From: a virus
Lineage: Duplodnaviria > Caudoviricetes
Virus record (IMG/VR): IMGVR_UViG_3300031705_000005
Coordinates: 1 to 53,572 of that record
Strand: one strand, 5' to 3'
DNA length: 53,572 bases
Shown piece by piece: positions 10,220-10,494 of this stretch (positions are counted from its first letter, which is position 1; every line of letters begins with the position of its first letter). The translations under genes and the position numbers were made by a program. The notes below the pieces were generated by a model that made no database searches, was not told the origin of the DNA, and worked only from the letters and a program-made list of their open reading frames with translations.

Positions 10220-10296
10220 GAGAATGATTGAAGCTAATCATAATAAAACCGATGATGTGAACACCTACGGGTAATACAACGCCGGATATTATTCTC
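10220..10296 (+). ncRNA. Structured RNA motif, copy X (precedes tRNA-Gly-like gene)
   Basis: Closing stem GAGAATGAT/ATTATTCTC, TTGAAG, hairpin ATCAT-AATAAAACCG-ATGAT, C(TACG)G hairpin, CCGG. Confidence 0.6.
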
Positions 10297-10302
10297 AATA
10301 CT

Positions 10303-10374
10303 GCGGGAGAAGGGTTAAGAGAAACTCGTTGTACTTCCAGTACAAAGAAGTTGGGGCAGTTCCAACCTCCCGCT
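10303..10374 (+). tRNA. Non-canonical tRNA-Gly(TCC)-like RNA (T-loop GGCAGTT)
   Basis: Full cloverleaf: GCGGGAG/CTCCCGC, GGGT/ACTC, TTGTA-CTTCCAG-TACAA, GTTGG-GGCAGTT-CCAAC, T73. Confidence 0.75.
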
Positions 10375-10376
10375 CT

Positions 10377-10494
10377 AAAAGAACAATTGAAGATTGAGAT
10401 AAAACCGCTCAAGCAATTCGGAAGGTTAAAGCATATAAGACGATTTATCGCATCTGCTAGTTTCCCCGATGGTGTTACCGGCTATTGTTCTTTT
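10377..10494 (+). ncRNA. Structured RNA motif, copy Y (precedes tRNA-Gly-like gene)
   Basis: Closing stem AAAAGAACAAT/ATTGTTCTTTT, TTGAAG, hairpin TTGAG-ATAAAACCG-CTCAA, longer variable arm, CCGG. Confidence 0.6.

Follow-up and report, generated by a model that had tools for sequence, protein, structure and literature searches.

The DNA analysed here, referred to as the window, is a 53.6-kb fragment (53,572 nucleotides) of IMG/VR virus record IMGVR_UViG_3300031705_000005, with an estimated completeness of 29%; the 24 listed sequencing runs holding DNA near-identical to it are all marine metagenome DNA. A stretch rich in RNA genes, at about 8460–10580, contains tRNA-Ser, tRNA-Glu, tRNA-Gln, a tRNA with an 8-nt anticodon loop and two odd tRNA-Gly(UCC)-like genes, together with two copies, X and Y, of a small RNA motif. 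The two stretches are real copies of a structured RNA family, on the given strand. X and Y lie 5–6 nt before and 1–3 nt after tRNA-like genes, X being 6 nt and Y 5 nt from the downstream odd tRNA-Gly-like gene. These gaps, the shared words, the pairing stems and the overall architecture were all found in the sequence where the initial annotation had placed them. The parts of the two copies are as follows.

10220–10296, plus strand: copy X, 77 nt, type-A-like
10220–10228 and 10288–10296: closing stem P1 of X, GAGAATGAT and ATTATTCTC, 9 bp, one of them G.U
10229–10233: TGAAG (UGAAG in RNA) of X
10237–10241 and 10252–10256: P2 of X, ATCAT/ATGAT
10242–10251: P2 loop of X, 10 nt, read as AATAAAACCG in DNA and AAUAAAACCG in RNA
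10257–10259: GUG of X
10260–10280: variable P3 region of X
10281–10287: G-CCGGA-U of X, with CCGGA at 10282–10286
10377–10494, plus strand: copy Y, 118 nt, type B
10377–10387 and 10484–10494: closing stem P1 of Y, AAAAGAACAAT and ATTGTTCTTTT, 11 bp
10388–10392: TGAAG of Y, UGAAG-A occupying 10388–10393
10394–10398 and 10408–10412: P2 of Y, TTGAG/CTCAA
10399–10407: P2 loop of Y, 9 nt, ATAAAACCG in DNA and AUAAAACCG in RNA
10413–10477: long variable insert (P3) of Y, 65 nt, ending in GUGUUA
10478–10481: CCGG of Y, followed by CU at 10482–10483 (C where X has A)

Within the window, the word pair TTGAAG-N(1–12)-ATAAAACCG occurs twice against 0.01 expected, and two or more occurrences were seen in 0 of 100 shuffles. 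Folding of the individual sequences gave a z score of -2.34 for X, whose minimum-energy fold joins loop CCG to the distal CGG and leaves P2 unformed, and an uninformative -0.12 for Y. Single-sequence folding is weak evidence for the motif, and its real support is comparative.

In pattern scans, 2.9 million viral contigs yielded at least 117, and then at least 120, stretches with the shared words. Many matches of the first, looser pattern were due to chance; in the true ones the closing stem is flush with UGAAG and resumes a single base past CCGGA. Requiring 6 bp or more in P1 left 94 instances in the fetched loci, X and Y included, among which are at least one likely false match (L010) and one that the model did not confirm (L065). 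The family plan consists of P1, UGAAG, a P2 hairpin with the loop AUAAAACCG, an optional variable P3, CCGGA-Y and P1′, spanning about 55–120 nt in all; P1 measures 6–17 bp and reaches 13–17 bp in several members. Two types were distinguished: type A reads P1 - UGAAGCCA - P2 (loop AAUAAAACCG) - GUG - optional P3 - AAAGCCGGA-Y - P1′, and type B reads P1 - UGAAGA - P2 (loop AUAAAACCG) - short linker ending in YUA - CCGGA-Y - P1′. X resembles type A in its 10-nt loop, the GUG following P2 and the G preceding CCGGA, and matches the L090 copy at 78.8% over 66 nt (blastn). Y carries the type B traits, namely an A following UGAAG, a 9-nt loop and UUA preceding CCGG, together with its 65-nt P3 insert. 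With 57 positions matched out of 118, X and Y belong to different subtypes and are no recent duplicate, which corrects the earlier description of a duplicated motif.

Two covariance models were built. R1, made from 44 type-A sequences, found 92 copies (67 distinct) in 95 loci and matched type-B copies at E values of 1e-4 to 1e-8; X, itself part of the R1 seed, scored 72.5 bits, and Y gave no match at E ≤ 10 in the R1 search. R2 was made from 12 type-B copies of other phages, with X, Y and the variant in L228 left out. In searches of 68 kb with filters off, R2 recovered Y at 47.8 bits (E 4.4e-10), taking a 56-nt stretch as an insertion, and X at 24.0 bits (E 8.9e-4); the L228 variant scored 49.5 bits. 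A covariance-model search, the check proposed in the initial annotation, finds a large family in the contigs of other phages. A weak R2 match at 1478–1532 of the window (14.8 bits, E 0.24), with UUGAAGA and UACCGGA, was considered as a third copy and taken as chance, its loop being just 5 nt and its surroundings apparent coding sequence.

The stems are supported by covariation. All 14 pairs of P1 and P2 (nine and five, respectively) change on both sides among the 67 distinct rows, and standard pairs make up 95.0% of cells, compared with 60.2% after shuffling and 30–61% in controls with slid 3′ partners. Because the alignment follows the model structure, these figures are somewhat favoured, but the margin is large. 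The covariation score of 0.854, against 0.202, was reached by 0 of 500 shuffles. In the stem pairs G.U occurs 41 times and A.C 13 times, indicating that the given strand is the folded strand. P3 is optional and differs completely among copies with identical P1, P2 and core.

The core is made up of UGAAG, the loop AUAAAACCG and CCGGA-Y, in which about 19 nucleotides, unpaired or tertiary, hardly vary. UGAAG, the loop and CCGGA are invariant in all 67 rows, but the fetch patterns required those words. A pattern-independent view comes from 48 copies upstream of RecA genes that were found by model search only, in which the sole core change is A to G in CCGGA, at five loci. When the whole collection was scanned for type-A copies in which the first loop C is changed, five matches came up, none with the motif architecture, and a scan for a changed A of CCGGA gave 22, of which 17 are real (16 G and one U). 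Y itself reads CCGGC-U, one core letter off, and L228 has CCGGU at the same site. Pairing is possible between the loop CCG and the CGG of CCGGA, and between G14-C15 and a G-C just upstream of CCGGA.

The motif has no counterpart in the catalogues searched. Against Rfam 15 (4227 models), no overlapping match at E ≤ 10 was obtained for X, the core of Y, or the canonical copies L090, L047 and L226; what appeared was noise at the edge of Y (CRISPR-DR57, 10486–10522, 18.1 bits, E 1.4) and on L105 (tmRNA_permuted, 518–786, 18.8 bits, E 1.7, the gathering score being 47), the latter spanning a tRNA-Met together with the motif. ARAGORN and the Rfam tRNA model (RF00005) made no call on X or Y, whose helices run P1-P2-(P3) and include neither a D nor a T arm. 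Among GenBank phages (blastn, word size 11, E ≤ 10), one of two canonical copies was without a match and the other had chance matches within protein genes. Literature searches on structured RNAs of phages, GOLLD, phage tmRNA, theta ribozymes and the stable RNAs of T4 found no description of the motif, although it might be among the 224 motifs drawn in PMC5737381 or in the theta-ribozyme tables.

The family is almost confined to phages and viral contigs. When one genome from each of 185,579 species was scanned with the type-A pattern, only two contigs were found, both 2-kb contigs of Bacteroidetes metagenome-assembled genomes with the layout of the RNA islands described below. Each of 11 other records searched, including phages 94% and 95% complete, holds zero or one copy; the window, with one copy of each subtype, is an exception. 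Three kinds of site were seen. In tRNA arrays, the motif follows tRNA-Met by 3–5 nt in eight loci, and in L201 it stands between tRNA-Thr (2 nt) and tRNA-Ala (5 nt). The second kind is the RNA island, found in phage contigs of 100–180 kb and ordered as transfer-messenger RNA (tmRNA), tRNA-Met, motif, one or two small hairpin RNAs, GOLLD and a long tRNA array. The third is the operon gap: about 42 of the 94 instances, counted by eye from flanking peptides, lie between genes for a gp32-type single-stranded-DNA-binding protein and RecA, with no tRNA nearby, 8–16 nt past the gp32 stop and 17–33 nt ahead of the RecA start. Other operon sites are the gap between a 5′-3′ exonuclease and a DnaB-type helicase and a position ahead of a PD-(D/E)XK nuclease. 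The family thus exists, is structured and occupies the sites of tRNA genes. Expression signals differ by group: the gp32|RecA phages have strong Shine-Dalgarno words, and the islands have promoter words of the Bacteroidetes type. That the core is kept across groups with different signals suggests either a partner common to many hosts or a self-contained activity. The flanks of the 94 instances show no enrichment of antisense targets, that is, complements of the loop, UGAAGCC or GCCGGA (observed versus expected 0 v 3.5, 23 v 24.4, 15 v 32.3, 15 v 19.8 and 0 v 2.2).

A recurring promoter-like word stands ahead of the motif in some island loci; a second one comes no more than about 15 nt past it in all six loci read, and there is no open reading frame (ORF) to regulate. 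GOLLD (RF02032), which is also phage-borne and located near tRNA islands, lies 3′ of the motif in 14 of the 14 island loci with at least 1,028 nt downstream, the order being (tmRNA), tRNA-Met, motif, about 550–650 nt, and the GOLLD 3′ domain; in the six island loci without GOLLD the sequence ends 177–674 nt past the motif. In the GOLLD cryo-electron microscopy paper, the marine GOLLD env-38 is placed downstream of a Met-tRNA. The two RNAs differ in size, GOLLD exceeding 800 nt and the motif measuring 55–120 nt. The motif starts 613–739 nt upstream of the Rfam GOLLD match, compared with a 5′ region described as 420 nt, and it falls outside the 833-nt GOLLD only on the assumption that the 416-position Rfam model is the 3′ region. 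No GOLLD accompanies the motif in the window, in G010 (94% complete), or in G006, G007 and G011.

Several further features of the islands were recorded. Fifteen loci (L099, L041, L090, L105, L127, L142, L154, L161, L171, L172, L194, L196, L214, L224 and L225) have their own tmRNA (Rfam 71–112 bits) directly 5′ of tRNA-Met, with tag peptides ending in ...DYAVAA or ...DLAIA. In L041, L067, L099, L102, L105, L090, L225 and L226 a promoter-like word, TTTGGTAG..GAAAAA..TATCGTATCTTTA, stands before each small RNA unit. The interval between motif and GOLLD in the same eight loci holds two more conserved small elements, a hairpin with the loop UAUAGGUGAUGAAAGAUACUCGG and AGUAGUUGAUUGGUUCGCCAGAAAACAAAAUUG, the latter with a short hairpin and an A-rich tail; neither reaches an Rfam gathering score. 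In L142 and L202, tRNA-Met is separated from the promoter-like word ahead of the motif by a conserved insert of some 95 nt, whose ends show long-range complementarity (UCUAUnAUAGUGG...CCAUUAUAAUAGA).

The gp32|RecA site was sampled independently of the motif by anchoring on RecA, using the best 80 of 592 confirmed relatives. The gap contains the motif in 48 of the 80 loci (46 type A, two type B). The remaining 32 comprise three with tRNA-Cys, six with another structured RNA, 12 with a plain hairpin, two with other hairpins, seven that are empty and two without upstream sequence. The tRNA-Cys(GCA) genes are canonical (L247, Rfam tRNA 69.9 bits; L259 and L273, identified by eye), and the 12 plain hairpins are GC-rich and followed by a U-rich run. 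The other structured RNA (L249, L255, L257, L258, L286 and L300; 170 nt upstream of RecA) is likewise uncatalogued, with no Rfam match at E ≤ 1; it has a closing stem GGGUGG.../...CCACCC, a conserved CUAAGGUU.AGAGCCACUG, a variable hairpin and then CUGG. The words flanking the slot are identical throughout the sampled loci while its contents change, and the motif, tRNA and other RNA are therefore interchangeable cargo in near-identical phages. The gp32|RecA spacer looks like a hot spot for small RNAs carried as cargo. In Microcystis phage Mel-JY01, the nearest cultured relative by RecA, the gp32|RecA gap is 8 nt and the motif was not found anywhere in the genome.

The reading favoured here, to which a probability of about one half is given, is that the motif is an autonomous accessory small RNA gene that resides in tRNA-type slots and is freed by flanking processing. 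We infer that it is an RNA gene in its own right and no regulator of its neighbours. The motif would be co-transcribed with tRNAs or with the mRNAs of replication genes. In arrays, its 5′ end would be set by 3′ trimming of the upstream tRNA, 2–5 nt ahead of P1, and its 3′ end by the RNase P cut at the downstream tRNA, 5–6 nt past P1; the assignment to tRNA-trimming enzymes is made because of this spacing together with established knowledge of tRNA maturation. P1 would shield the ends of the released RNA, the loop CCG and the CGG of CCGGA could form a compact pseudoknot, and the invariant core would act in trans, binding either a small ligand or a partner that different hosts share. One of the proposals of the initial annotation, cargo RNAs released by tRNA-like punctuation, comes near to this explanation and is in keeping with the tRNA-like spacing in arrays and the slot shared with a canonical tRNA.

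A likeness is found in phage T4, in which rnaD (species 2) and rnaC (species 1), described as 'RNAs of yet unknown functions', are small non-tRNA RNAs standing in line with the tRNA cluster at tRNA-like spacing, as the motif does: rnaD follows tRNA-Arg at 1 nt, and rnaC follows rnaD at 6 nt. The T4 RNAs, longer at 119 and 139 nt, differ from the motif also in that rnaC ends in a T-arm-like structure and rnaD in CCA, neither of which the motif has. Homology was sought with R1, filters off, and neither RNA gave a match, the best score in the locus being 11.2 bits (E 1.7) elsewhere.

Several observations weigh against an autonomous released RNA. No RNA run is on record among the 24 listed runs with window DNA. 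The proposed pseudoknot and the G14-C and C15-G pairs consist of letters fixed by the fetch patterns; the loop–CGG pairing noted in the initial annotation is possible by its letters, and it never varies. The 15–87 pair shows one double change only, to U-A in L043, and A92 becomes G in 16 copies with G11 unchanged, which does not fit a Watson-Crick pair between 11 and 92. The promoter-like words of the islands are putative promoters, being of a TAnnTTTG type that we take to be the Bacteroidetes consensus. Finally, about 42 of the 94 instances have no flanking tRNA to excise the motif, and for these a cis role fits equally well; a decorated terminator, a processing site and a 5′-untranslated-region element are all compatible with the gp32|RecA copies.

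A first alternative, which we regard as doubtful, is an unrecognised class of small self-cleaving ribozyme, or a ligand-binding RNA, carried as a portable single-copy module by phages of unrelated hosts. As a ribozyme it would punctuate polycistronic phage transcripts, freeing the 3′ end of an upstream tRNA or parting gp32 from RecA mRNA, and the approximately 19 invariant nucleotides would be its pseudoknotted active site. The motif resembles known small ribozymes in its small invariant core, its optional variable stem and its possible pseudoknot, and the first loop C, for which no real variant was found (0 of 5), suggests a constraint beyond base pairing. The positions are also suggestive: the motif lies 2–5 nt past a tRNA 3′ end in nine loci (eight tRNA-Met, one tRNA-Thr), Y is abutted by an odd tRNA, and the alternatives in the gp32|RecA slot, tRNA and hairpin, likewise get cut or bring a transcript to its end. 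Theta ribozymes provide the nearest parallel. According to PMC10879173, they are small structured RNAs just 3′ of a phage tRNA, in many cases tRNA-Met; the phages are thought to infect Bacteroidota and Bacillota, and the ribozymes are proposed to shape the tRNA 3′ end. They lie within 1 nt of the tRNA on either side and come mostly from gut phages, whereas the motif is 2–5 nt off and occurs in marine or other environmental viral contigs. About half of the motif copies, unlike theta ribozymes, are far from any tRNA.

The known ribozyme folds do not fit. The search at E ≤ 10 gave no Rfam ribozyme match. The fold of HDV-like ribozymes (HDV, hepatitis delta virus) is a nested double pseudoknot in which the 5′-most strand forms P1 with a segment right after P3, and P2 closes the structure. 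An HDV-like or theta fold was rejected for the motif, as its helix order is unfit for it and the segment after the P2 hairpin (GUG; none in type B) has no conserved partner upstream, nothing 5′ of P1 pairing with it. The hammerhead core consists of the words CUGAUGA and GAAA set among three stems; these were not found in the junctions of X, Y or the family consensus, and the hammerhead was rejected as well. Two more features speak against self-cleavage of any kind: the stand-alone units of the islands lie between two promoter-like words with nothing obvious to cut, and closing stems of 13–17 bp in several members resemble those of a stable RNA.

It is unlikely that the motif is a cis-acting element, be it a riboswitch aptamer or an operator bound by a protein, with the closing stem serving also as terminator or stability hairpin. 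Such an element would tune read-through into, or translation of, the downstream RecA, DnaB-type helicase or PD-(D/E)XK nuclease gene, and the operon sites are indeed all beside replication or recombination genes, those between gp32 and RecA and the others alike. The invariant unpaired core looks like a binding pocket. A U-rich run follows P1 in the gp32|RecA slot, where relatives have a plain GC hairpin and a U tract, and P1 may therefore serve as a terminator stem. Small riboswitches with pseudoknotted aptamers offer a comparable design, in which a hairpin loop pairs with a downstream strand, with an A-rich linker and a pocket-like core. The motif differs in having no Rfam riboswitch match at E ≤ 10, no expression platform and often no regulated ORF. 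In the window, L201 and the islands, a tRNA or tRNA-like gene or a promoter-like word comes 5–15 nt on, leaving no room for a platform and no ORF. On these grounds a generic riboswitch was rejected for the window, with its tRNA-like gene 5–6 nt past P1, and for the islands, with their promoter-like word; the gp32|RecA copies are still compatible with one. Even at that site, the Shine-Dalgarno word of RecA lies outside P1 without overlap, and a tRNA can occupy the same slot.

Quite unlikely, too, is a pure processing signal, a tRNA-like 't-element' for RNase P, RNase Z or another nuclease, or a block to exonucleases, in which the motif and a real tRNA would be interchangeable punctuation with no role after cutting. 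The gp32|RecA slot, common to the motif, a canonical tRNA and a plain hairpin, and the tRNA-like spacing in arrays would both be expected of such a signal. A precedent exists in the t-elements of plant mitochondria (PMC1920247), structures in tRNA position that mark transcript ends. Those elements are recognisably tRNA-like, unlike the motif, which ARAGORN and the Rfam tRNA model miss and which has neither a T arm nor acceptor-like dimensions, given a P1 of 6–17 bp. In arrays the flanking tRNAs already provide cuts, making a further signal redundant; about 19 invariant nucleotides far exceed what a nuclease signal usually needs; and the slot is empty in seven of the 78 RecA loci with upstream sequence.

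The remaining explanation is that of the initial annotation, in which the motif is a dedicated maturation partner for the odd tRNA-Gly genes, whose elbow would be poorly read by RNase P. The genes concerned, and the unusual tRNA preceding them, are the following.

10099–10173, plus strand: tRNA with an 8-nt anticodon loop, CAUUCCAG, and a canonical T loop, 46 nt upstream of X
10303–10375, plus strand: odd tRNA-Gly(UCC)-like gene 1, T loop GGCAGUU, D loop without GG; its end abuts Y
10500–10573, plus strand: odd tRNA-Gly(UCC)-like gene 2, T loop GGCAGUU, D loop without GG

Both odd genes fold as cloverleaves, gene 1 at -28.1 kcal/mol (z -3.65, 0 of 200 shuffles) and gene 2 at -31.7 kcal/mol (z -4.56), although neither ARAGORN nor the Rfam tRNA model (E ≤ 10) makes a call on the two. 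They are identical at 64 of 74 positions, and the differences are mostly compensatory (acceptor, anticodon and T stems). Homologues are present in eight other viral contigs (L227, L228, L229, L231, L232, L233, L235 and, at 12286–12366, L201), with anticodon loops CUUCCAG, CAUCCAG (A at position 33) or CAACCAG. A scan for their D-arm and T-arm words gave nine stretches, seven of them real, and in all seven the odd tRNAs lie downstream of a homologue of ORF 9848–10114, a conserved ORF of 88 aa.

Each window copy of the motif does stand 5–6 nt upstream of an odd tRNA, and the two occur in one array in L228 and L201 as well, making three lineages with the window; dependence of one on the other does not follow from this. 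In six of the seven related loci (L227, L229, L231, L232, L233 and L235), all syntenic, two odd tRNAs stand in tandem, 4–5 nt apart, with no motif between or beside them, and the whole L231 contig (37 kb, the one that could be searched) has none. The order in L228 is odd tRNA, motif variant (UAAAG, loop AUAAGGCCG, CCGGU), normal-T-loop tRNA and odd tRNA, so that the tRNA next after the motif has a canonical T loop and is not an odd one. In L201, a 94%-complete phage of 168 kb, the odd tRNA stands behind its own promoter-like word about 355 nt before the motif. Conversely, the odd T-loop word GGGGCAGTTCC is absent from all five other motif-bearing records searched, including a 95%-complete phage of 180 kb, and hundreds of gp32|RecA spacers free of tRNA contain the motif, those of the 48 RecA-anchored copies among them. 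Odd tRNAs occur without the motif and the motif without odd tRNAs, and therefore neither needs the other; their co-occurrence fits two separate dwellers of tRNA arrays. A maturation partner is highly improbable, being already contradicted by the distribution of the motif and the odd tRNAs, and the supposed link to the odd tRNA-Gly genes is withdrawn with it.

Other features of the cluster were noted in passing. ARAGORN reports the tRNA at 10099–10173 as 'tRNA-???' (anticodon tc) and the Rfam tRNA model scores it at 46.7 bits; its first 16 nt lie within the end of ORF 9848–10114, and its homologue in L228 has a 7-nt loop, CAUCCAG. Right after the last odd tRNA of L228 there is a hairpin-closed element of about 68 nt, GGUGGG...CCCCCACC, with UUGAAGC and without the AUAAAACCG loop, which may be one more small RNA of such arrays. 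The window cluster also has, between its tRNAs, three non-coding stretches of 130–190 nt (8480–8668, 8753–8880 and 9494–9667), on which Rfam gave no match above noise. The first follows a promoter-like TATATTTG and the last ends with a GC hairpin and a T run; one of the three may be the other motif of the initial annotation. PHROGs gave nothing useful on the small ORFs near the cluster.

For the window, these results remove the link between the motif and the odd tRNA-Gly genes, which become a separate puzzle. Phage tRNA clusters are now seen as more than aids to codon usage, and the non-tRNA RNAs that reside in them, such as T4 rnaC and rnaD, GOLLD and ROOL, are unexplained; we file the motif as an addition to these orphan structured RNAs of phage tRNA islands, absent from Rfam 15. 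Its fixed position between tRNA-Met and GOLLD in one phage group supplies a new neighbour for the GOLLD problem, and the exchange of tRNA, other RNA and plain terminator in one slot is a natural experiment on cargo function. If the motif were a ribozyme or ligand-binding RNA, it would be a marine and freshwater phage counterpart to the role proposed for the theta ribozymes of gut phages. Short, abundant, strongly covarying and extremely conserved in its core, the motif is a tractable candidate for biochemical study.

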